Shown piece by piece: positions 1,825-12,217 of a DNA stretch of 27,404 bases. Origin of the DNA: Nanopusillaceae archaeon (GTDB lineage Archaea; Nanobdellota; Nanobdellia; Nanobdellales; Nanobdellaceae). Where the stretch lies: the NCBI GenBank assembly GCA_038833255.1, contig JAWBIX010000002.1, positions 1-27,404 on the forward strand. Reading direction: 5' to 3'. The notes beneath the pieces are model-generated. The model worked only from the letters and a program-made list of their open reading frames with translations. It was not told the origin of the DNA and ran no database searches. The position numbers and the translations under genes were made by a program. Numbering within the stretch: the first letter of the stretch is position 1; every line of letters starts with the position of its first letter.

Positions 1825-3183
1825 TTATTTTATCAAATATTTTCCAATAAGAGGCAAGTATTGTATTGCTCCGTTTCTTTCTAATTCCATATACATTTGA
1901 GATGCTATCACTACTAAAAGTAGTAATGATATACCAGAGACTGCAACACCAAGTATATCTGAAATTGCGGCTATAAATCCTATCATAATACCTGACAAAT
2001 ATGCTAATGTATTAATATATTTCTCTAAGGTTTTTTCTATTAATCTTGGATCCCTATACTTTAAAGTTTGTATTGGCATTGTTTGCAAATATTTTGCAAT
2101 TGTTTTTGCATCCATACCAGAAGTTGTAACCCACATATAAGAAAATAACATACCGCCTATCACAAAAATTATTAAATAAAACAATATATGAAATATATTA
2201 AAGAGATCTAATAAATAAGAAAGCCCATATTGGGATATATTAATTATTAAGTTTGGGGGTAAAAATAATCGATAAAGAATAGAATTTGGATTTCTTCCAA
2301 ATATTACTTGAAACCATGTTATTATACCATATAAGAATATTGCTGGAAGTACTGATGTATATAAAAGATTTAGGGGATATTTTATTATTCTTCCACCAAT
2401 ATTAATATATAATAATGGAATTTCTATTTTCACAGATTGTAAATACGCTACAAGTGCTAAAATAGCAAAAGTTAGCAAAACTTTAAATATTAGAGCTAAA
2501 GCAAAAGAGATGTTTCCCTGTATTAAATAAACTATTGCTTGAGGTAGTAAACCTGTTGGCATATATAAACCATGTATAGCATACTGCGGAGATGGTACTG
2601 GATTAAATATTCTTAATGCTACTGATATACTAATCGAAACGAAAATAATTAAATTTATTCCTGAAAGAACTCCATATTTTGCTGAAAAATCATCTAGTAA
2701 AATAATTATAAGTCCTCCTAAAAACAATTGCAAAAATATTATAAAATATAATATTGGTAGAGATATTGGTAAATTATGATCTGGAATAACATTTCCAGAC
2801 AATATAAAAGAAATAGATTGTATTAATAAAAAAATTATTGATAAAAATTTAACATAGGAATCATATTTGGCTCTGCTTTCCTCATCAAAAATATTTATAT
2901 TAACAATTCCGCTAAATACCAACAATTGCATAAATAAACCAGCCATAATAATTGGTGCTATGCCTACTGTTGCTAAAGTACCTATATGTGATCCAAAAAC
3001 CCACATAAATTCTAAAAATCTTTGACTAATTACGGGAGATATTCCAAATATTGGGATTGAAGCCAGTAAAACATAAATTACTATAACTAATATTGAGTTT
3101 TTTATTTTTTCTTCAACTGTCAATGGTCTTTCTGGGGGTTTTACAGTTGGTAAATATTCTAAAATTTCATCAATTTTTAACAT
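1825..3183 (-). CDS. secY: Preprotein translocase subunit SecY
   Basis: 452-aa polytopic membrane protein. The N-terminus (LPTVKPPERPLTVEEKI) and about 10 hydrophobic segments are typical of archaeal SecY/Sec61alpha. Its position relative to L34e/L14e fits. Confidence 0.9.
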   Translation of the reverse strand: MLKIDEILEYLPTVKPPERPLTVEEKIKNSILVIVIYVLLASIPIFGISPVISQRFLEFMWVFGSHIGTLATVGIAPIIMAGLFMQLLVFSGIVNINIFDEESRAKYDSYVKFLSIIFLLIQSISFILSGNVIPDHNLPISLPILYFIIFLQLFLGGLIIILLDDFSAKYGVLSGINLIIFVSISISVALRIFNPVPSPQYAIHGLYMPTGLLPQAIVYLIQGNISFALALIFKVLLTFAILALVAYLQSVKIEIPLLYINIGGRIIKYPLNLLYTSVLPAIFLYGIITWFQVIFGRNPNSILYRLFLPPNLIINISQYGLSYLLDLFNIFHILFYLIIFVIGGMLFSYMWVTTSGMDAKTIAKYLQTMPIQTLKYRDPRLIEKTLEKYINTLAYLSGIMIGFIAAISDILGVAVSGISLLLLVVIASQMYMELERNGAIQYLPLIGKYLIK

Positions 3184-3230: not shown

Positions 3231-5222
3231 TTATCTTTGCTGTTTTCCAAAAGAGCCCAAATCTAAAGGAACATCAGAAAATCCTCCATACGTCATTGTT
3301 AAAGTTGGTAAATCTGCAATATAAACAGATGCATAATACGTAGGAAGAATAGGTAATTTATAAAATGTTTCTACATTGTAATCTTTAATTGGGAATGTAT
3401 ATGATATAAAATACGAGTATTCTGGTCCAAAATATTTAAAGAAATTACCAGAATACCATCCTCCAACTTCATGAACAACAGATATTCCTTTTTCAGCTAA
3501 TAAATCTTTTAATTCTTCTATTTCCATCTTTATAATTTCGTCTTTTTCCATTCCTAATGGAATATGAACATCTTCTCCATATTTACTTTCAGAAATATGA
3601 ATATGTCTTATATATGGTTTCATTTCGTTAATCCATCTTTTTATATCTTCTTTTTCATACCCATATTTTTCAAACAATTTTAAATGCGCTACATCTAAAG
3701 TTATTCCAATATATTTATCGACAAAATTTTCTAAATTTCCAAATTTTTCTACAATTTTGTTTTTTACTTCAGGATGTTTATCTAAAATTTCAAAAAGAGC
3801 TTTTCTAGCTTTTTCAACAAATTCCTTTAAAATTTCTGGTCTAGAAATTGCATCTTCTGGATAAACATGTTCAAAATATATTTTTGGAAATACTACATCT
3901 ATTGAATTCAATTTTTCTTTATCTTTTTTTATATCCTCTAAAAAGCGATCTAAACTTCTTTTGAAAGAATCAATAGCAGAATCTATTGCTACTGCAGGGA
4001 AAGGTTTTAAAATTGGATAACGCATATTTTCAAGTTCTTGCAAAGCAAAATTTAAAATTAAGTAAGTTTTTCCTTCTATTAAATTTAAAAAATCTTTATA
4101 GATATTAGAATTGTCAATTATCTCCCTAATTTTTTTCCTACTTTCTATTTCTCCGATTCCATATTCTTTTGATACATTTTGAATTTGTTCACTAATATTA
4201 TCTATCTTTTTTCTTAATTCACTTAAATAATTAAGAGCTAACGGTACATATTTTATTTCAACATTTTGTTCTTCTTTTTTATACAAATAACTAGAATACA
4301 TAAAACTCAAAGTTGAGTATAGATCGTCTATATACATCTTTAAATTATTTAAATATCCTAAAAAGAATCCTGTAGATAAATCTCTTTCAAAATATAAATT
4401 ATTCAGCTTTTTTATTTCTTTTCCCAGTTTATCAATCTTTTCTAAAACATCCCTTAAAATTTTATTAAAATATTCTTCATTATACTTATATAACCTGTCC
4501 ACAATTGTTTCTTCTATTTCCTTTTTAGCTATTTTCTCTTGCATTTCCATGAGCTTTTCAGATAGATGACGTCTATCATATAGATCCAAATACCCTGTTA
4601 TTATATATCCTTTAGGTAATTCTGTAACTGTTGGCATTGAAATTGAAAATACCCATGCTGGTAAGTCATTAGGATCCTTAATCTTATATAAATCTTCCTT
4701 TTTTAATAATCCTAAATAAACTAACTTATTTTTTAAATCATTAAATTTCTCAGGATTTTCTCTTAAAAATTCTTTCAATTTTTCTTCATATTTTTTATCC
4801 CAAGAAATTCCAGATATTGCTGAAGTGGCATGAATAACCACTTTTATACTATCTCCATAAATCCTTCCAAGATTGGCTGCTGTATCTAATATAGATTTTA
4901 ATTCATACGCAACCTTTTCTTTACCTAAATCGTCAATAATATATCCGCTTTCGCTAGTTCGCATTCCAGTTAATATTGGAAATATGTTCCCCTGACTAGA
5001 TATAAATGGCGCATGAATACTTAAATCTATTTTATTTACTCTTGCTTTTCTTGCAATTTCATCCCATATTTCTTTTGGAATTTGAGACCAATGTCTGAAT
5101 GTAGCTAGATTTATCTCTACTCCAGGATATCCTAATCTTATTTTATTTTCAAGTTCTTCCAACTGATTTACTATTTCTGGATTTGTTGATGTTGATTGTC
5201 TTCTTTTAAATACTTCTTCCAT
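3231..5222 (-). CDS. Xylose-isomerase-like / endonuclease IV-like metal-binding TIM-barrel protein with a roughly 300-aa helical insertion; function unknown
   Basis: A set of ligand-like motifs appears in the order and approximate spacing of AP-endonuclease family 2. These are LSIHAP (H70), VVIHA (H131), then a gap to about aa 440, then IYFEHV (E451), LDVAHL (D510/H513), IRHIHISE (H540/H542), EDVHIPLG (D551/H553) and VVHEVGG (E585). Residues about 140-440 are helical and coiled-coil-like (EKLMEMQEKIAKKEIEE..., ELRKKIDNISEQIQN...). Confidence 0.55.
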   Translation of the reverse strand: MEEVFKRRQSTSTNPEIVNQLEELENKIRLGYPGVEINLATFRHWSQIPKEIWDEIARKARVNKIDLSIHAPFISSQGNIFPILTGMRTSESGYIIDDLGKEKVAYELKSILDTAANLGRIYGDSIKVVIHATSAISGISWDKKYEEKLKEFLRENPEKFNDLKNKLVYLGLLKKEDLYKIKDPNDLPAWVFSISMPTVTELPKGYIITGYLDLYDRRHLSEKLMEMQEKIAKKEIEETIVDRLYKYNEEYFNKILRDVLEKIDKLGKEIKKLNNLYFERDLSTGFFLGYLNNLKMYIDDLYSTLSFMYSSYLYKKEEQNVEIKYVPLALNYLSELRKKIDNISEQIQNVSKEYGIGEIESRKKIREIIDNSNIYKDFLNLIEGKTYLILNFALQELENMRYPILKPFPAVAIDSAIDSFKRSLDRFLEDIKKDKEKLNSIDVVFPKIYFEHVYPEDAISRPEILKEFVEKARKALFEILDKHPEVKNKIVEKFGNLENFVDKYIGITLDVAHLKLFEKYGYEKEDIKRWINEMKPYIRHIHISESKYGEDVHIPLGMEKDEIIKMEIEELKDLLAEKGISVVHEVGGWYSGNFFKYFGPEYSYFISYTFPIKDYNVETFYKLPILPTYYASVYIADLPTLTMTYGGFSDVPLDLGSFGKQQR

Positions 5223-5223
5223 C

Positions 5224-6852
5224 TTAGTAGTTTAATAGTCCAAAAGTCTTCTTAAACGCATTATAGATTGTCCATCCCTTATCCTTTATCGACATCTTTA
5301 AATTTTCTTTTTCTATCTCTATTTTCTTTTTTACATTTGAATATTTCAAAGCAGATAAATCTTTTCCAAAGGAAACAATAAATTCGAATAATTTATAAAA
5401 TATATCTAAAAAATCTTTATATGCTGGAAATAACATAGAAACTGTACTTTCTTTAGTTTCCTTATTGTTCTTTTTTACTTCTTTATTTTTCTCTAATGGA
5501 AGATATTTCTTTATCCATTCTAATCCTCTTGTTATATTTTTATCAACCCTTTCTAAATTCTCAATAAACTCTCTAGTCCAAGTTATATCCTCTGGTTTCT
5601 TTATATCTGTCTTTTTAAAATATTTTTTTGTTTCCTCTAAAAGATCTTTATTTGAAATAATTTTATCAAATATATAATAATTACAAATAGCTGAAGCTAT
5701 TTGCTTTAAAAATTCTTCAGTTAGTCCTTCAATATATAAAAGGTCTTCAATTTCTTTAGAAGCAATTAGTTCATCGTATTCGCTTTTTTCTAATAAATAT
5801 GCCCTGTAAATAATATCTATTCTTCCAAAATATGTATAAATTGGAGATCTTTCTGGAGATATGGCTTGTAAAGTTGGTCTAGATCTTGACAAGATATTAA
5901 TTTCATAAACTGGTATATATTTTTTAGTAACTAATTCTTTTTTATTAAAATCCCATTCACTAATTTCTTTCTCTGCATCAGAAGCTAACAGATCGATTTC
6001 TATCATTACAGATTCTAGAGATTTTACCAAATCTGGATTATCATAGTTTTTTTGAATTAACATTTTTGCTGCTTTAAGATAAGGCTTTGCTATTTCAGTA
6101 TAATATACTAAAGAATTTATTTGATGAATTAAATATGCTTTTAGCATCCTTTCTCTTTCTCTTATATATTTTTCCGATTGCTCTAACCAATTATAAAATT
6201 CTGTTAATCTTGATTTTAGAATAGATATAACTCTTTCATTAACGATATTATTTTTTTCGTAATATGAAATATCTATAAAATTATTGTGAGATAATACACT
6301 TTTATTTACTATTTCTTTTTTAATAAGTTCTCTCAACTTCTCCTCATATTCAACAGCAATAAATAGATCTACTATTGTAGAATATCCAAGTCTTCCTCTA
6401 AGATTCATTAAGCTAGTAGCCCCTTTCTTAGAATCAACATTATCTAACCATATTGACTTTAAAGCTTTTAGGGCTACAAATGAAATTTCAGGATTATCAG
6501 ATTTTAATTCATCGTATCTAGCAATTCTTTCAGCAATAATAGTTCTATATTCATTGTCTATACTTATTATAGATTTTATTATTGTATTTATTAATCCTCC
6601 AAGTTTAGTTGCATTATCTAAAATAGTTATTTCTCTTCTGACAATATCAGTAAAAAAGGCGGAAGCAATAGAACCACCAAATTCGTCAGATATTTTTAGA
6701 ACATTTAATTTTAAATTATCTCTAAGAAAATCAAGTAACCAAAAGTAAATTTGTTCTAATCTATATCTTGGATTATCTATAACTATTTTAGCTTCAAATA
6801 ATTTGTGTTTTTCTCCTATTTTTTCTTGCCTTAATTCATCTAAGGATACCAT
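5224..6852 (-). CDS. Large alpha-helical hypothetical protein, coupled to the downstream TIM-barrel gene
   Basis: The track ORF is 5224..6951 (575 aa). I prefer the internal ATG at 6852 (MVSLDELRQEK...). The extra 33 codons would overlap the divergent gene that starts at 6921, and they read like reverse-complemented promoter DNA. The stop at 5224-5226 lies 1 nt from the next start at 5222. I saw no P-loop or other catalytic motif. Confidence 0.55.
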   Translation of the reverse strand: MVSLDELRQEKIGEKHKLFEAKIVIDNPRYRLEQIYFWLLDFLRDNLKLNVLKISDEFGGSIASAFFTDIVRREITILDNATKLGGLINTIIKSIISIDNEYRTIIAERIARYDELKSDNPEISFVALKALKSIWLDNVDSKKGATSLMNLRGRLGYSTIVDLFIAVEYEEKLRELIKKEIVNKSVLSHNNFIDISYYEKNNIVNERVISILKSRLTEFYNWLEQSEKYIRERERMLKAYLIHQINSLVYYTEIAKPYLKAAKMLIQKNYDNPDLVKSLESVMIEIDLLASDAEKEISEWDFNKKELVTKKYIPVYEINILSRSRPTLQAISPERSPIYTYFGRIDIIYRAYLLEKSEYDELIASKEIEDLLYIEGLTEEFLKQIASAICNYYIFDKIISNKDLLEETKKYFKKTDIKKPEDITWTREFIENLERVDKNITRGLEWIKKYLPLEKNKEVKKNNKETKESTVSMLFPAYKDFLDIFYKLFEFIVSFGKDLSALKYSNVKKKIEIEKENLKMSIKDKGWTIYNAFKKTFGLLNY

Positions 6853-6920
6853 TGATATAATTTTATGTTTATTCTGAAAGATAAAAAGATTATTTATTAT
6901 AAAAAGTAAAATATTACATA
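6853..6920. promoter_or_regulatory. Divergent promoter region with TATA-like boxes for both flanking genes
   Basis: tttattataaaaa is centred about 24 nt upstream of the ATG at 6921. On the other strand ctttttatctt is centred about 28 nt upstream of the ATG at 6852. Both are consistent with leaderless or short-leader archaeal transcripts. Confidence 0.35.
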
Positions 6921-7442
6921 ATGAGATATCATTTAATAATATTACCGACAAAAGGTTTTTCGGAAGAAGATCTTGTAAATTTTATTGAAATTATTAAGGG
7001 AAAAGTATATGTGGCTACACCTAATAAAAAAGTAGCTATTGGTAAGTATGGTTCGAAAATTTTTCCTGATTTTTCAATAAAAGAAATATTTTTACTTAAA
7101 GATACTTTTTTTGATGATTTAATAATTATATCTGATGATGGGTTTAAAGAATTACTTACGCCAGAAGTTTCTGCTATTTTTGCAAGATTTTTATATTCAA
7201 AAAAACCAGTTATCTTATCCTCCTTAGCACAAATAGGTATTGCAAAAATGGAGTTAATAAACGGAAGAATGATCACTTTTAATAACATAGATTTTCCAGA
7301 ATATATGAAAGTCGTAAGAAACTTAAAAGTAAACTTTATTGACTTACCTTGTTATATAGACGATAATTTAATAACAACTAAAGGAAGAGAGTTTGTTTTT
7401 GATTTAGAAGATTTTTTAATTGATTTAAGTTTAACAAAATAG
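6921..7442 (+). CDS. DJ-1/PfpI-superfamily (class I glutamine amidotransferase-like) protein lacking the nucleophile Cys
   Basis: 173 aa. It can be aligned by eye to PfpI-type proteins: LPTKGFSEEDL..., DDLIIISDDG, KKPVILSSLAQIGIAKMELINGRMITF and IDDNLITTKG. The canonical ...ICHG... nucleophile elbow is replaced by ...SSLA.... Confidence 0.55.
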   Translation: MRYHLIILPTKGFSEEDLVNFIEIIKGKVYVATPNKKVAIGKYGSKIFPDFSIKEIFLLKDTFFDDLIIISDDGFKELLTPEVSAIFARFLYSKKPVILSSLAQIGIAKMELINGRMITFNNIDFPEYMKVVRNLKVNFIDLPCYIDDNLITTKGREFVFDLEDFLIDLSLTK

Positions 7443-7613: not shown

Positions 7614-8756
7614 ATGAATATGAATGTAACTCCTTGGGAAGTAAATATAAAATCTGAAGAAGATTACGATAGGTTAATTAAAGAATTTGGTGTAAGTAAA
7701 ATAGATGAAAGTATAATAAAGAATTTAGAAAAAATAGCTGGAAATGTGCATATATTAATAAAAAGAAAATTTTTTTACGCACATAGAGATTTTGATAAAT
7801 TATTAAATTCTTACCTAAAAGGAGAAAGATTCTTTTTATATACTGGAAGAGCGCCTTCAAAAAGTAAAATGCATATAGGACATTTAATACCTTTTATTTT
7901 AACTAAATGGTTTCAAGAAAAATTTAACGCAAATGTTTATATTCAACTCCCAGATGAAGAAAAATATTGGGCTAAAAAAGCAGATAATTATGAAGAAATT
8001 TATAATTACGCTATAGAAGATGCAAAAACTATTGCCGCTCTTGGCTTTGATCCAGACAGAACTTTTATATTTATTAATTCTGTATATATTAAGCATCTTT
8101 ATAAACCTGCAATATATATTGCTAAAGAAATATCTTTAAACGAAGCAAAAAAAGTATTTGGATTCTCAGATTCTGCATCGGTTGGTTTACCTTTTTATAT
8201 TGCCCTACAAATTGCTCCTACATTTTTTGAAAAAAATATACCATTAATTCCCTGTGGAATTGACCAAGACCCTTATTTTAGATTACAAAGAGATATTGCT
8301 GAGAAATTTAATAGAAAAAAGGCAGTTACAATTTTATCAAAATTTGTTTGGGGTTTGCAAGGACCATATACAAAAATGTCCGCATCAAATCCAAAATCAG
8401 CAATATTTGTCGACGATGATTTTGAGACAATAAAACAGAAAATATATAAATATGCTTTCTCCGGTGGTGGGGCTACATTGGAGGAACATAGAAAATTTGG
8501 AGGAAAACCAGAAATAGATGTTTGTTTTTTCTGGTTGTCTATTTTCTTTGAAGAGAATGACAAAAAATTAAAAGAAATTGAAGAAAAATATAGAAGTGGT
8601 GAGCTGACAACTGGAGAATTGAAGGAATATACTGCAAATAAAATATGGAACTTTTTAAAGGAAATACAAAAAAACAGAAACAAAATAAATTTAGATAAAT
8701 ATATGTTTGATGGGAAGTTGGCTTCAGAAATGTGGAATTGGGAATTTAAAATATGA
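7614..8756 (+). CDS. trpS: Tryptophanyl-tRNA synthetase (archaeal/eukaryotic type)
   Basis: The N-terminal VTPWEV...DYDRLIKEFG is typical of TrpRS. It has the class I HIGH motif (KMHIGHLIPF) and a KMSKS-type motif (KMSAS). Confidence 0.85.
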   Translation: MNMNVTPWEVNIKSEEDYDRLIKEFGVSKIDESIIKNLEKIAGNVHILIKRKFFYAHRDFDKLLNSYLKGERFFLYTGRAPSKSKMHIGHLIPFILTKWFQEKFNANVYIQLPDEEKYWAKKADNYEEIYNYAIEDAKTIAALGFDPDRTFIFINSVYIKHLYKPAIYIAKEISLNEAKKVFGFSDSASVGLPFYIALQIAPTFFEKNIPLIPCGIDQDPYFRLQRDIAEKFNRKKAVTILSKFVWGLQGPYTKMSASNPKSAIFVDDDFETIKQKIYKYAFSGGGATLEEHRKFGGKPEIDVCFFWLSIFFEENDKKLKEIEEKYRSGELTTGELKEYTANKIWNFLKEIQKNRNKINLDKYMFDGKLASEMWNWEFKI

Positions 8757-9898
8757 AAATAAAAGAAAATCCTGAAGATTTTTACGTAAAAGAAATAATA
8801 GATCTAAAATCTAAAAATTTAGGAACAAAATATGCTTATTTCTTGATGTGGAAAAAAAATTTAAGTACCATTAGAGCGATAAAAATTGTTGCTAAGAATT
8901 TAAAAATATCAAAAAAAAGAATATTTTTTGCCGGGGAAAAAGATAAAAAAACTATATCTGAACAATACATTGCAATAGAAAATTTAAAAGAATTTAAAGA
9001 TAGATATGATTTTGGAAATGTAAAACTAAGATATATTGGAAGTTTTGATAACCCTATAAGAATATCAGATATCGTTGAAAATTACTTTTCTATAAAAATA
9101 AGAGATGTAGAAGAAAAAGAGTTTGAAATATTTAAAGAAAATTTAAAAATATTCAAAGATTTATTTTTTAATTATTTTGATGAACAGAGATTTGGAAGTA
9201 TTAGATATATAAATCATCTTGTTGGAAAAGAAATAATAAATAGAAATTGGGAGGAAGCAATAAAAATAATCCTAACATTTTATTCTGATAAAGAGAACGA
9301 AAAAGCAAAATTTGCTAGAAAATGGCTAAAAGAAAATTGGGGAAAATTTAAAGAAGCAATAAAATATTACCCTAAATGGTTAGATATAGAACTGAGTATA
9401 TTAAATTCTTTAATAAAAAATGGAAATTATCGTAAAGCATTTAAGAGCATTCACAAAAGATTGTTAAAATTATTCTTACATTCCTACCAATCTTATATAT
9501 GGAATCTTATTTTATCTAAATACATAGAGGAAAAATCTAAAAATATAGCGAAAATCAAAATTGCCGAAGATTATTTTTACATATCAAAAGACAAGGAAAC
9601 TATAGAAAAATTAAAAAATAAATCATTAGATTTAATAGGATATAATTTAAAAGAATATGAAATAGATAGTGAATTTAGAGAAATCTATATAAATATATTA
9701 AAAAATGAAAATATTAATCTTAAAGATCTTTATTTCGAAAACAAACCATCTCTTGCCTTAAAAAGTATTAAAAGAGAAGTATTATCAAATGTAAGAGATT
9801 TAAAATATGATATAAAAGATAATTCTATAATATTAAATTTTTACTTAAAAAAAGGAAGTTATGCTACAATATTTATAAAGCATTTATTTACCAAATAA
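8753..9898 (+). CDS. truD: tRNA pseudouridine synthase TruD/Pus7 family
   Basis: It has the N-terminal PEDFYVKEI and the NYFDEQRFG motif (the TruD catalytic Asp region). It shares an ATGA overlap with trpS. Confidence 0.8.
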   Translation: MKIKENPEDFYVKEIIDLKSKNLGTKYAYFLMWKKNLSTIRAIKIVAKNLKISKKRIFFAGEKDKKTISEQYIAIENLKEFKDRYDFGNVKLRYIGSFDNPIRISDIVENYFSIKIRDVEEKEFEIFKENLKIFKDLFFNYFDEQRFGSIRYINHLVGKEIINRNWEEAIKIILTFYSDKENEKAKFARKWLKENWGKFKEAIKYYPKWLDIELSILNSLIKNGNYRKAFKSIHKRLLKLFLHSYQSYIWNLILSKYIEEKSKNIAKIKIAEDYFYISKDKETIEKLKNKSLDLIGYNLKEYEIDSEFREIYINILKNENINLKDLYFENKPSLALKSIKREVLSNVRDLKYDIKDNSIILNFYLKKGSYATIFIKHLFTK

Positions 9899-10942
9899 TA
9901 AAACAAAATTTAATATTAGTGCTGCTAAAATTAAATAACTAACTAAAATATGTAATTTTGAAGCTTTCTTATCGTCTTTAATTAGAATATTTAATAATGC
10001 TTTAAGTGCTTGTCCACCATCTAATGTAAATATCGGTAAAGAATTTCCTAAACCAATACCCAAACTTATTATAAATATCCAAAACAATATATTAAATACC
10101 ATTCCAAATTTTACTTCCTGAGCAAAATATAATCCTATAAATGGCTTTCCATCCCTTTCAGATAATTCTATTATATATTTTCCTTTATCAGTAATTAATT
10201 CAATTTTATCACCTGGAGAATAATTACTTAACGCTTCTACTATGTCTTTGTACTCTCTAATTTCTTTATTACCAATAAATAAAACTCTTTCATTTGTCTC
10301 AAAAGAAAGATTTTCAACGTTGGTAACATTCGGAACTTTCCCCACAATATAAACATACGATTCTGAGCTAAGAATATTAGAACTATATAAAATATATATC
10401 AAAAGGGCAACAAATAAAGACAAAAGAATGTTTGCTAATATTCCAGCATTAAAAATAGATATTTGTTTAATTTTATTTAATTTAAATATATCTTCAGATG
10501 GTTCAACAAAGGCTCCAAGAAATGGCCCAAAAAAGAAAATTCCAAAGGATTTTATTTCTATTTTATTTTTTATAATTAATAAAGCATGGGCTAATTCATG
10601 AACTAGAGCTGAAATAAATATTGCTAATATTACTTCAAAAATTGGAAACTTTATTCCATATATTTCTAAACCAGGAATAACCGGAACCACCGTTGGTATT
10701 CTTGCTTTTATACCATAAAAAATAAAGTAAATTGCAACTATCATTGAAATAAACCCTATAGGAATAGCTGCGTATTCAAAAATTTTTATTAATTTAGATT
10801 TACTAATTTTTTCCAGAAAATCTAGTCTATTTCCAATTTTATAAAGACCATATATGTACTTATATTCTACATTTTTCCCAATTTTTTTTAAAAATTGAAA
10901 AAGAGCAGAAAGAAAAAATATATATAATAGTAAAAAATACAT
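9884..10942 (-). CDS. Site-2 protease family (M50) membrane metalloprotease with a PDZ-like insert
   Basis: It has HExxH in a transmembrane segment (VHELAHAL), the C-terminal NSLPIFTLDGG (the NxxPxxxLDG motif) and multiple hydrophobic helices. Confidence 0.8.
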   Translation of the reverse strand: MYFLLLYIFFLSALFQFLKKIGKNVEYKYIYGLYKIGNRLDFLEKISKSKLIKIFEYAAIPIGFISMIVAIYFIFYGIKARIPTVVPVIPGLEIYGIKFPIFEVILAIFISALVHELAHALLIIKNKIEIKSFGIFFFGPFLGAFVEPSEDIFKLNKIKQISIFNAGILANILLSLFVALLIYILYSSNILSSESYVYIVGKVPNVTNVENLSFETNERVLFIGNKEIREYKDIVEALSNYSPGDKIELITDKGKYIIELSERDGKPFIGLYFAQEVKFGMVFNILFWIFIISLGIGLGNSLPIFTLDGGQALKALLNILIKDDKKASKLHILVSYLILAALILNFVLLFGK

Positions 10943-10948
10943 CTTTAA

Positions 10949-11140
10949 CTATTTCGACCCTATTAATACAATTTCTGATCTTTTAGGTCTTAAATCCTTA
11001 GATTTACATTTTCTACATTTTACTTTTCCTAATTTTACTTTAACTGGATCTGCACGTATTCTAGATTTACATTTTCTACATATAAATATTCTTTCAAACT
11101 TTCTTAATTTAACTTCAGGTAATAATCCTGTACTACCCAT
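10949..11140 (-). CDS. rpl40e: Ribosomal protein eL40 (L40e)
   Basis: 63 aa. The pattern ICRKC...(N)...CRKCKSKDLRPKR is the zinc ribbon plus LRPK tail typical of L40e. Confidence 0.7.
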   Translation of the reverse strand: MGSTGLLPEVKLRKFERIFICRKCKSRIRADPVKVKLGKVKCRKCKSKDLRPKRSEIVLIGSK

Positions 11141-11165
11141 TTTCTTTTACATCTTTAGTTAAGAT

Positions 11166-11693
11166 TTAAATTAATTTATACCTTGCTATGTCTAAGTATA
11201 GCGGACCTTCATATCTTAATATACTTTGCTTTAAAGAGAACTCCTCTACAATAAATTCGCCTATATTTGCTGACGATAATTTTTCTAAAGTATGATTATA
11301 ATCTGATCTTGATAATATTTGTTTAATTCTAAGAACAGTAATGTGAGGATAGAAATCTTCCTCATAAAAGCCAAATTTTTTTATAACATTGTCTATTTCT
11401 TTTTTCAACATAATTAGATTATTTGCTCCTTTTTTTACTCCAAACCATAACACTCTATTATTAAAATTTCCAAAACCTCCAATTTCTATATTAAACTTTG
11501 AGAATTTTATATTTTCCAACTCCTTTTTTATTTTTTCTACAATATTCGGCTGTAATTCTCCAAGAAATTTGAGAGTTATATGTAAGTTCTCCTTTTCTAC
11601 AAATTTTCCATGAACTCCCTTAATTTCCTTATAATATGAAACAATTTTGTTTTTTATTTCCTCTGGTAAATCTATTGCTATAAAAACTCTCAT
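11166..11693 (-). CDS. thpR: RNA 2',3'-cyclic phosphodiesterase (2H phosphoesterase, LigT/ThpR family)
   Basis: It has two HxT motifs at the expected spacing (LHITLKFLG and PHITVLR). The length of 175 aa is typical. Confidence 0.8.
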   Translation of the reverse strand: MRVFIAIDLPEEIKNKIVSYYKEIKGVHGKFVEKENLHITLKFLGELQPNIVEKIKKELENIKFSKFNIEIGGFGNFNNRVLWFGVKKGANNLIMLKKEIDNVIKKFGFYEEDFYPHITVLRIKQILSRSDYNHTLEKLSSANIGEFIVEEFSLKQSILRYEGPLYLDIARYKLI

Positions 11694-11698
11694 TTTTA

Positions 11699-12217
11699 TT
11701 ATAATAATAAAAAAGTAATAAAAAAGAGTATTAGAAATATTATAGAAATTTTTTCTTGTATTTCTTTGTATTTGTTGTTAAATAGAGGAATCCTTATTTT
11801 AAAATTACTTAAAGGATAAAATATTTCAACACCTGAAACTGTAAAAATATCTTCTAATATATGCAATGCAAAGGAAAGAGCCAAAATAAAAAATATATTT
11901 GAAAATACAAATTTTAAAAATAAGAAAAGTAAAACAAAATAAATTGAGTGAGTAATTCCTCTATGTTTAAACATTTTTGCTAAAAACTTTAAGAAAAGAT
12001 AATATGGAATTACAAAATAATATATTTTCTTTCTTTCTAATATCGATATTTGTCTATTAGTCCAAGAAGATATTTTATAATCCATATCCGGTATTGTAGA
12101 AAATTTCGCAGTTATTATTGATAACGATAAAGCCGAATATCTGTCAAAATTCATAAACACAAAATATATTATATATGATAATATTAAAGATATCGAAAAG
12201 TGCAGCTTAAGTATCAT
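11699..12217 (-). CDS. Membrane-bound metal-dependent hydrolase family protein (YdjM/DUF457-like)
   Basis: It has four to five transmembrane segments, the HRGITHS motif and a later HxLxD motif (HILED) typical of DUF457. Confidence 0.6.
   Translation of the reverse strand: MILKLHFSISLILSYIIYFVFMNFDRYSALSLSIITAKFSTIPDMDYKISSWTNRQISILERKKIYYFVIPYYLFLKFLAKMFKHRGITHSIYFVLLFLFLKFVFSNIFFILALSFALHILEDIFTVSGVEIFYPLSNFKIRIPLFNNKYKEIQEKISIIFLILFFITFLLL

Follow-up and report, generated by a model that had tools for sequence, protein, structure and literature searches.

The stretch of DNA analyzed here (the window) comprises 27,404 nucleotides (nt) of contig JAWBIX010000002.1 from a Nanopusillaceae archaeon (assembly GCA_038833255.1), is AT-rich with a GC content of ~25%, and carries on its minus strand a pair of adjacent genes that form the subject of this study. 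One encodes a 663-amino-acid (aa) protein predicted to fold as a triosephosphate isomerase (TIM) barrel interrupted by a long insertion, and the other, lying upstream of it, encodes a 542-aa partner. An earlier note on this DNA, made from the letters alone, had described two minus-strand open reading frames (ORFs) 1 nt apart, with secY on one side and a divergent DJ-1-like gene on the other, and both the ORF list and the sequence of the junction agree with that description. The two genes, the predicted segments of the barrel protein, and the flanking features, with segment boundaries taken from an AlphaFold2 (AF2) model and its DSSP strand assignment and per-residue confidence (predicted local distance difference test, pLDDT), are as follows.

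5224..6852, minus strand: partner gene, 542 aa; start ATG at 6852 placed by homolog alignment, stop codon 5224-5226
5223, minus strand: single-base spacer between the partner stop and the barrel ATG, read from the sequence
3231..5222, minus strand: split TIM-barrel gene, 663 aa; ATG-start ORF, stop codon 3231-3233
4806..5222, minus strand: predicted N-terminal half-barrel, residues 1-139; strands 10-12, 34-38, 66-70, and 127-131 (DSSP, pLDDT)
3888..4805, minus strand: predicted insertion domain, residues 140-445; modeled by AF2 as short helices and four or five longer ones (30-40 residues each), plus a beta-hairpin at 195-212
3393..3887, minus strand: predicted C-terminal half-barrel, residues 446-610; strands 447-451, 505-510, 538-543, and 581-584
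3234..3392, minus strand: C-terminal tail, residues 611-663, predicted disordered (pLDDT <50); rich in G, S, Y, F, and P
6853..6920, no strand: AT-rich intergenic region of 68 bp between the divergent partner and DJ-1 genes, presumed promoter, read from the sequence
1825-3183, minus strand: SecY gene, flanking the barrel gene downstream
6921-7442, plus strand: DJ-1/PfpI gene (PF01965, E 7e-8), divergent from the partner

On the minus strand, the junction between the two genes reads ...CTAC TAA G ATG GAA GAA..., with the stop codon at 5226-5224, the spacer at 5223, and the ATG at 5222, and a spacer of 1 nt suggests translational coupling. The partner ORF delimited mechanically, 5224..6951(-), begins with a TTG and would encode 575 aa, an extension that would overlap the start of the divergent DJ-1 gene (6921). 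The ATG at 6852 is the most likely start because the homologs (542-562 aa) align from that methionine; of the 540-575 aa originally proposed for the partner, the length of 542 aa therefore stands, and the 575-aa form is, judged by its homologs, an over-extension. The 663-aa barrel protein is 100% identical to protein P0001 of a Nanopusillaceae metagenome-assembled genome (MAG).

Judged by profile searches and its structural model, the 663-aa protein is a xylose-isomerase-like/AP-endonuclease-2 TIM barrel of the PF01261 family, with 4+4 predicted strands around an insertion of ~300 aa. The intact protein matched PF01261 (AP_endonuc_2, xylose-isomerase-like TIM barrel) at 32.8 bits, against a cut-off of 31.1, over residues 490-579; with residues 140-405 deleted, a single PF01261 match of 37.9 bits spanned residues 29-579 and profile positions 6-220 of 249. 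Diverse family members from which the insertion had been deleted behaved in the same manner, with 21/21 matching PF01261 as one domain (best E 5e-17). The AF2 model, obtained from a 65-sequence alignment, reached a pLDDT of 86.3 and a predicted template modeling score (pTM) of 0.85, and DSSP assigned eight strands to it, four on either side of the insertion. Both lines of evidence agree with the earlier proposal of a metal-site TIM barrel of the AP-endonuclease family 2/xylose-isomerase type split by an insertion of ~300 aa. The accompanying description of the ~300 residues between the barrel motifs as coiled-coil-like was accurate as to length; the model shows no simple coiled coil, and instead a beta-hairpin together with short and long helices. 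For this insertion domain there was no Pfam or PDB family match, designed coiled coils being its only matches, and it occupied the same place in 65/65 aligned family members, with a length of 185-302 aa. A Foldseek search of the PDB with the barrel model returned ketose 3-epimerases, an AP endonuclease family 2 protein (3ngf), UlaE, and xylose isomerase at probabilities of 0.95-1.0, with E-values of at least 0.02 and template modeling (TM) scores of 0.3-0.38; the E-values are poor because the insertion breaks the alignment.

The barrel family was defined by searching 1.8 billion representatives exhaustively with a profile, which proved to be needed, as word-indexed searches returned the same 8 close relatives whether they started from a single sequence or from a 9-sequence alignment with distant members. 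At 50% identity clustering, the exhaustive search recovered 198 clusters at E <= 1e-10 and, with the limit relaxed to E <= 1e-3, 315; of these, 150 were listed, almost all with lengths of 590-720 aa. This conservation fits the earlier argument that the retention of the two genes implies an important function. A fragment in a Nanopusillus barrel cluster is labeled as an Aquificaceae bacterium, probably reflecting bin contamination.

The motifs named in the earlier note, LSIHAP (H70), VVIHA (H131), IYFEHV (E451), LDVAHL (D510/H513), IRHIHISE (H540/H542), DVHIPLG (D551/H553), and VVHEV (E585), all lie at those residues in the translation, and their conservation was counted in the 65-sequence family alignment, where mean column identity is 23%. 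The N-terminal half-barrel carries the invariant residues E36, H70, and H131 along with a conserved N-terminal motif, TNPxxxNQ, and the C-terminal half-barrel holds E451, D510, H513, H540/H542, D551/H553, and E585. Seven of the candidate ligands (H70, H131, E451, D510, H513, H542, and E585), as well as E36, were invariant in 65/65 sequences, and H540 was kept in 60/65. The pair D551/H553 (window 3564-3572) was D/H in 55/65 sequences and H/E in the other 10, both positions changing together ('EHTELP' versus 'xDxHLP'); such a ligand-preserving paired swap is the pattern expected of a functional metal or substrate site. The motifs listed earlier are thus conserved and not products of chance. The putative E-D-H-E metal core (E451, D510, H542, and E585), present in 65/65, aligns with its counterparts in the epimerase FrlC and in endonuclease IV (Nfo). 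These patterns argue that the putative metal site of the barrel is intact and strongly constrained, and that catalysis is under selection. The predicted disordered tail is itself conserved in part, with near-invariant Y630, F648, P652, L655, and G656 and the motif 'GF..P.[DE]LG'.

The partner, as far as sequence comparison and modeling indicate, is an alpha/beta protein of an uncharacterized family without recognizable relatives. Twenty homologs, down to 27% identity and 542-562 aa in length, were found in MAGs labeled 'Nanoarchaeota', Woesearchaeota, and Pacearchaeota; the family as a whole ranges from 470 to 560 aa and shares the motifs ExxYFWLLDF, ALKxIWxDxVD, and KPYLKAA. Its AF2 model (pLDDT 76.8, pTM 0.54) has a beta-alpha-beta N-terminus, helices at 67-116 and 206-266 (50 and 60 residues), four long strands within 282-355, and C-terminal helices. 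The two N-terminal strands and the four-strand sheet at 282-355 contradict the earlier impression of an almost entirely helical protein, and the statement that it belongs to no recognized family has held up. In Pfam, the only match was AF0941-like, at E 0.008 in 1/17 members, and nothing significant was found in NCBIfam, PHROGs, PADLOC, or the PDB sequences with either a single sequence or a profile. With Foldseek, neither the PDB (best E 0.018, TM ~0.1) nor BFVD (best E 0.01) offered a structure matching the fold of the partner. Maturation proteins of single-stranded RNA phages (leviviruses) recurred in the Foldseek comparison of the partner with viral models at non-significant values (E 0.01-0.3, TM ~0.1), and the AP205 maturation protein headed its non-significant PDB list, a recurrence that may reflect only a shared combination of long helices with a long sheet. 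A common origin of the partner and the barrel insertion was rejected, as hhalign detected no similarity between them. The Makarova cluster cls.004340 is said to be a DPANN 'alpha-helical protein in housekeeping context'. Identity of the partner with this cluster (Makarova et al. 2019; NEQ484) was likewise rejected, since NEQ484, at 153 aa (PMC3149612), is set apart by its length.

The association of the two genes extended well beyond the window. A scan with the partner profile, restricted to one genome per species, found 105 relatives, and the 80 loci that were kept all belonged to Nanoarchaeota sensu lato: Nanopusillaceae, Nanobdella, Nanoclepta, Woesearchaeota, Pacearchaeota, and one genome labeled 'Parvarchaeota'. 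Scans with hidden Markov models (HMMs) found the barrel gene in 64/80 loci, downstream on the same strand in 63; in 11 of the 16 loci without a barrel, the sequence stops no more than 2.1 kb from the partner, which leaves 64/69 informative loci linked. The earlier idea of a coupled two-gene module, which called for a check of synteny and co-occurrence, thus gained support across Nanoarchaeota. The gap between partner and barrel was <=42 bp in 17 loci and typically 0.5-3 kb elsewhere, and the lengths of the two proteins correlated (Spearman 0.50, p = 0.003, with no correction for phylogeny). The gene order of the window, namely partner, barrel, SecY, and L34e, recurs in Nanobdella aerobiophila, and in strain MJ1 the pair corresponds to MJ1_0680 and the next gene. 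The neighbors of the pair are housekeeping genes, including SecY, ribosomal proteins, aminoacyl-tRNA synthetases, and TruD. A defense-system or viral origin of the pair was considered and rejected: PADLOC and PHROGs gave no match for either protein, and IMG/VR contigs contained no relatives. The taxonomic labels of some public MAG proteins are inconsistent (P0010, P0013, and P0179): partner homologs with 80-89% identity to the Nanopusillaceae protein carry the label Aenigmatarchaeota, and the barrel-cluster fragment mentioned above carries that of a bacterium.

In most Woesearchaeota and Pacearchaeota loci, the pair forms part of a longer array consisting of the partner, an acidic disordered protein, the barrel, and an MNT-type nucleotidyltransferase (NTase). 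The ORF in the gap between partner and barrel lies on the same strand and encodes 160-250 aa that are strongly hydrophilic (grand average of hydropathy, GRAVY, -1 to -1.6) and usually acidic (isoelectric point, pI, 4-6), often with a basic C-terminus and sometimes with GxDFY repeats; it occurs in most Woesearchaeota and Pacearchaeota loci among L020-L085, and examples are L004:7670-8233, L045:9527-10132, and L061:9496-10164. These gap ORFs do not constitute one sequence family, as BLAST and HMM comparisons gave clusters of 9, 7, and 3 loci, and what they share is position and acidic disordered composition. The NTase that follows the barrel is a protein of ~290 aa of the MNT/kanamycin nucleotidyltransferase (KNTase) type, with the signature GS...SDID...DD, a PF01909 match at E 3e-7, and weak PDB matches to MNT and KNTase. 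It was present within 36/51 informative loci and directly downstream of the barrel in 26, with gaps of 4-292 bp (e.g., L004:10268-11152). Just upstream of the partner, 26/75 loci have a divergent gene for a small coiled-coil protein of ~120-130 aa (e.g., L004:5569-5922(-)). Its N-terminus is conserved (MIDVRELQRRG..RIP), its middle part is disordered, and a coiled coil occupies its C-terminus; by size alone, it is a candidate member of the cls.004340/NEQ484 family. None of these three accompanying genes, for the NTase, the acidic disordered protein, or the small coiled-coil protein, was found in the 27-kb window, where the Nanopusillaceae-type arrangement has SecY following the barrel, and Nanobdella has only a small split HEPN and NTase pair, 3.5 kb away.

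The composition of these loci bears on the possibility that the module is mainly structural, a cytoskeleton-like or condensate-forming assembly in which long helices, the partner sheet, and Tyr/Gly-rich tails would do the work and catalysis by the barrel head would be secondary or lost. The long helices in the models of both proteins, the G/S/Y/F-rich disordered barrel tail with its conserved short motif, the acidic Tyr-repeat disordered protein whose gene separates the pair in most lineages, and the small coiled-coil protein found divergently upstream in about a third of the loci are all compatible with such an assembly. The eight invariant residues at the putative metal site and the ligand-preserving change from D/H to H/E argue instead for selected catalysis, and neither protein resembles any known filament former; we judge a predominantly structural role to be very unlikely.

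The interpretation that we favor, with a probability of roughly 0.4, is that the pair encodes a metalloenzyme of two subunits that is specific to the phylum and probably works as a phosphoesterase on nucleic acids or on nucleotidylated substrates. The two gene products would join in a single cytoplasmic complex, present in nearly all Nanoarchaeota/Nanobdellota and only there. The catalytic subunit would be a divalent-metal (beta/alpha)8 barrel that re-forms around a helical bundle of 185-300 aa lodged between strands 4 and 5; the partner would serve as a non-enzymatic alpha/beta scaffold, supplied stoichiometrically through translational coupling. The chemistry may be metal-assisted phosphoester cleavage at a nucleic-acid end or on a nucleotidylated substrate, resembling that of endonuclease IV or CbiR rather than central sugar metabolism, with the insertion, the conserved disordered tail, and the partner potentially contributing to substrate recognition and assembly. 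In most of the phylum, which has the wider array, this complex would be co-transcribed with the MNT-type NTase and the acidic Tyr-rich disordered protein. The fold class, the split architecture, the conserved metal site, the synteny, and the phyletic range are results of the analysis; physical interaction of partner and barrel, as well as the substrate and the reaction, are points that we infer. A single complex is suggested by the coupling across 1 nt, by the synteny, and by the way the two lengths vary together. Further pointers to phosphoester or nucleic-acid chemistry are the predicted endonuclease IV homology of MJ1311, the only solved relative, the CbiR matches, and the alignment of conserved residues with those of Nfo, all detailed below. 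Phosphoester chemistry is preferred over small-sugar metabolism because lineages with hardly any metabolism still keep the module, because it sits among information-processing genes, because an NTase is coupled to it in most lineages, and because the 'HAP' histidine of the endonuclease IV/MJ1311 type is present, which FrlC does not have.

A more far-reaching extension, which we regard as speculative and on balance unlikely, is that the module forms the core of a phylum-specific machine that edits phosphodiester-linked nucleotides, comprising four genes in most Nanoarchaeota and organized on a partner of new fold. In one version, the barrel would heal nucleic-acid 3' ends and the NTase would tail them. 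In the other, a write/erase arrangement, the NTase would nucleotidylate tyrosines, either in the disordered protein or in the Tyr-rich tail of the barrel, and the barrel would remove the nucleotides.

Several observations weigh against phosphoesterase chemistry and have to be set against the points above. Profile-profile comparison of the barrel family ranked the sugar epimerase FrlC of Escherichia coli as the best match (prob 74%, E 2.7e-5, 197 columns), against 5.7% for E. coli Nfo. When 21 barrel family members were scanned against NCBIfam, every match was far below its curated cut-off. The protein is mildly acidic (median pI ~6), which is unexpected for a nucleic-acid binder. An argument from nine ligands to a trinuclear hydrolase site is weak because FrlC also has the beta-4 His, DxxH, HxH, and DxH, and the NTase and acidic disordered genes are missing from this position in the lineage of the window itself. 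Two of these points weaken the case for a phosphoester substrate in particular, namely the acidity of the protein and the fact that an epimerase gives the best statistical match. On sequence grounds, the barrel may be a hydrolase, an isomerase, or an epimerase, with MJ1311, FrlC, and CbiR as the best matches and Nfo weaker.

The same evidence raises the possibility of a small-molecule enzyme, either a ketose or sugar-phosphate isomerase/epimerase (FrlC/DPEase-like) or a CbiR-like cofactor-remodeling phosphodiesterase, which together with the KNTase-like NTase would remodel or salvage host-derived sugars or nucleotide cofactors, the partner and insertion serving only to regulate or oligomerize it. 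Apart from the leading hhalign match and the acidity of the protein, this possibility is consistent with the NCBIfam results, in which the FrlC fructoselysine 3-epimerase (NF007360; 14/21 members, best E 1.5e-6) and the CbiR cobamide-remodeling phosphodiesterase (NF041277; 10/21, best E 1.1e-7) were the commonest matches and hydroxypyruvate isomerase matched 4/21, with the tagatose/psicose 3-epimerases that head the Foldseek list, and with the resemblance of the adjacent NTase to kanamycin nucleotidyltransferase and MNT. The FrlC matches, far under the level of an equivalog cut-off, point to kinship at the superfamily level only. A comparison with UlaE gave no useful match to the barrel family. 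Nevertheless, the module is kept in the most metabolically reduced lineages (Nanopusillaceae and Nanobdella), where it lies among translation and secretion genes and not in metabolic operons, and it would be unusual for a soluble sugar enzyme to carry a scaffold of 540 aa, an insertion of 300 aa, and a disordered tail that is conserved. The family-level scores all fall under the curated cut-offs, and FrlC has no counterpart of H70; on balance, we consider a small-molecule role rather doubtful.

A canonical repair function was also weighed, in which the barrel would be an endonuclease IV-type AP endonuclease/3'-phosphatase for base-excision repair, tethered to DNA by the insertion and the partner. 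Its attraction lies in the ligands. The weak hhalign alignment with Nfo equates D510/H513, H542, D551/H553, and E585 with Nfo D179/H182, H216, D229/H231, and E261, so that six C-terminal ligand positions align with conserved residues, and inspection of the motifs shows H70, H131, and E451 mimicking H69, H109, and E145. We take these nine Nfo residues, H69, H109, E145, D179, H182, H216, D229, H231, and E261, to be its Zn ligands, and the residues are present at those positions of the Nfo sequence. All nine positions are of conserved ligand type in the barrel family, and eight of them, not including H70, are so in FrlC as well; the listed motifs are therefore marks of the superfamily, shared with members that are not nucleases, and not marks of endonuclease IV. 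An endonuclease IV-specific trinuclear site was accordingly given up as an explanation of the nine ligands, FrlC having all but H70 and matching better overall. H70, in the 'HAP' motif that MJ1311 also has, corresponds to Nfo H69. Within NCBIfam, the nfo model (TIGR00587) matched 1/21 barrel members at E 0.028, and the insertion-deleted family profile retrieved no endonuclease IV chain from the PDB at E < 1. Searched against all PDB sequences, that profile found only MJ1311 (3WQO, 'uncharacterized protein'), at E 2.3e-10, and this nearest solved relative was tabulated in 2009 as a predicted archaeal homolog of endonuclease IV (PMC2770678). Nanoarchaeum equitans already has a type IV endonuclease, Neq77a (PMC2614490), and an abundant 293-aa protein, NEQ368, annotated as 'Endonuclease IV' / 'AP endonuclease 2 family' (PMC3149612 supplement). 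NEQ368 was ruled out as the barrel described here by its length. Because N. equitans has a separate endonuclease IV, the split barrel is not needed as a canonical AP endonuclease, and we regard this role as highly improbable. The scaffolded DNA-repair nuclease suggested in the earlier note is thus conceivable and finds no specific support, with MJ1311, FrlC, and CbiR all closer to the barrel than endonuclease IV is.

The wider surroundings of the pair complete the description of the locus. Beyond SecY, on the same side of the pair, lie genes for L34e and an L14e/KOW protein, and past the DJ-1/PfpI gene are those for a class I aminoacyl-tRNA synthetase of the W/Y type, TruD, an M50 peptidase, and a LigT-like phosphoesterase. 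The order of the W/Y-type synthetase, TruD, M50 peptidase, and LigT-like 2H phosphoesterase is common to window positions 7614-12217 and Nanobdella aerobiophila (L001:1-5404), and the synthetase and TruD genes overlap by 4 nt (8753-8756). The ORF at 6929-7288(-) runs antisense to the DJ-1 gene and is a shadow of it.

The genomes of Nanoarchaeota (Nanobdellota) rank with the smallest of cellular life, so a family retained throughout this phylum and absent elsewhere is a prime candidate for explaining how these symbionts function. The module occupies ~3.7 kb of a genome of ~0.6 Mb and has been kept from Nanopusillaceae to Woesearchaeota and Pacearchaeota. With a domain of 200-300 aa inside the barrel, the 663-aa protein has an architecture not described for its superfamily; on the present evidence, the pair does not amount to a categorically new system. 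Literature searches by locus tag, by MJ1311/3WQO, and by DPANN combined with TIM barrel or AP endonuclease returned no paper on the pair or the four-gene array. Identification of the substrate would fill a gap in the DPANN minimal gene set and might reveal a new enzyme complex, tied to an NTase in most lineages. Since the pair is present in a cultivated strain, Nanobdella aerobiophila MJ1, the question is directly testable, making this organism a good experimental target.

Comparison with known systems places the barrel and its neighbors as follows. The ketose 3-epimerases (D-psicose/D-tagatose) and FrlC belong to the same superfamily, have the same barrel fold, and share the E, DxxH, HxH, DxH, and E motifs; they differ in being single-domain proteins of ~280-300 aa that act on small sugars, without an insertion, a partner, or a housekeeping context. 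Endonuclease IV (Nfo, TIGR00587) is a TIM barrel of the same Pfam family as the 663-aa protein, with weak statistical similarity to it. The neighboring NTase shares the GS...SDID...DD signature with the HEPN/MNT and kanamycin nucleotidyltransferases, from which it differs by its length of ~290 aa, by its own conserved C-terminal helical domain, and by its location in a housekeeping operon instead of a toxin-antitoxin pair. MJ1311 of Methanocaldococcus jannaschii has, like the barrel, 'VHAPFS', 'GITFDIGHAN', and 'HVHAHDNNGYDDEHLKIGEGN', corresponding to H70, D510/H513, H540/H542, and D551/H553; unlike the barrel, it has 293 aa, no insertion, no low-complexity tail, and no known partner, and its assignment as an endonuclease IV homolog is a prediction only. 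CbiR differs in being bacterial and single-domain, and the nanoarchaeal barrel loci lack a cobamide gene context; as a phosphodiesterase of the AP_endonuc_2 superfamily, it shows that such barrels can cleave phosphodiesters other than those of DNA.

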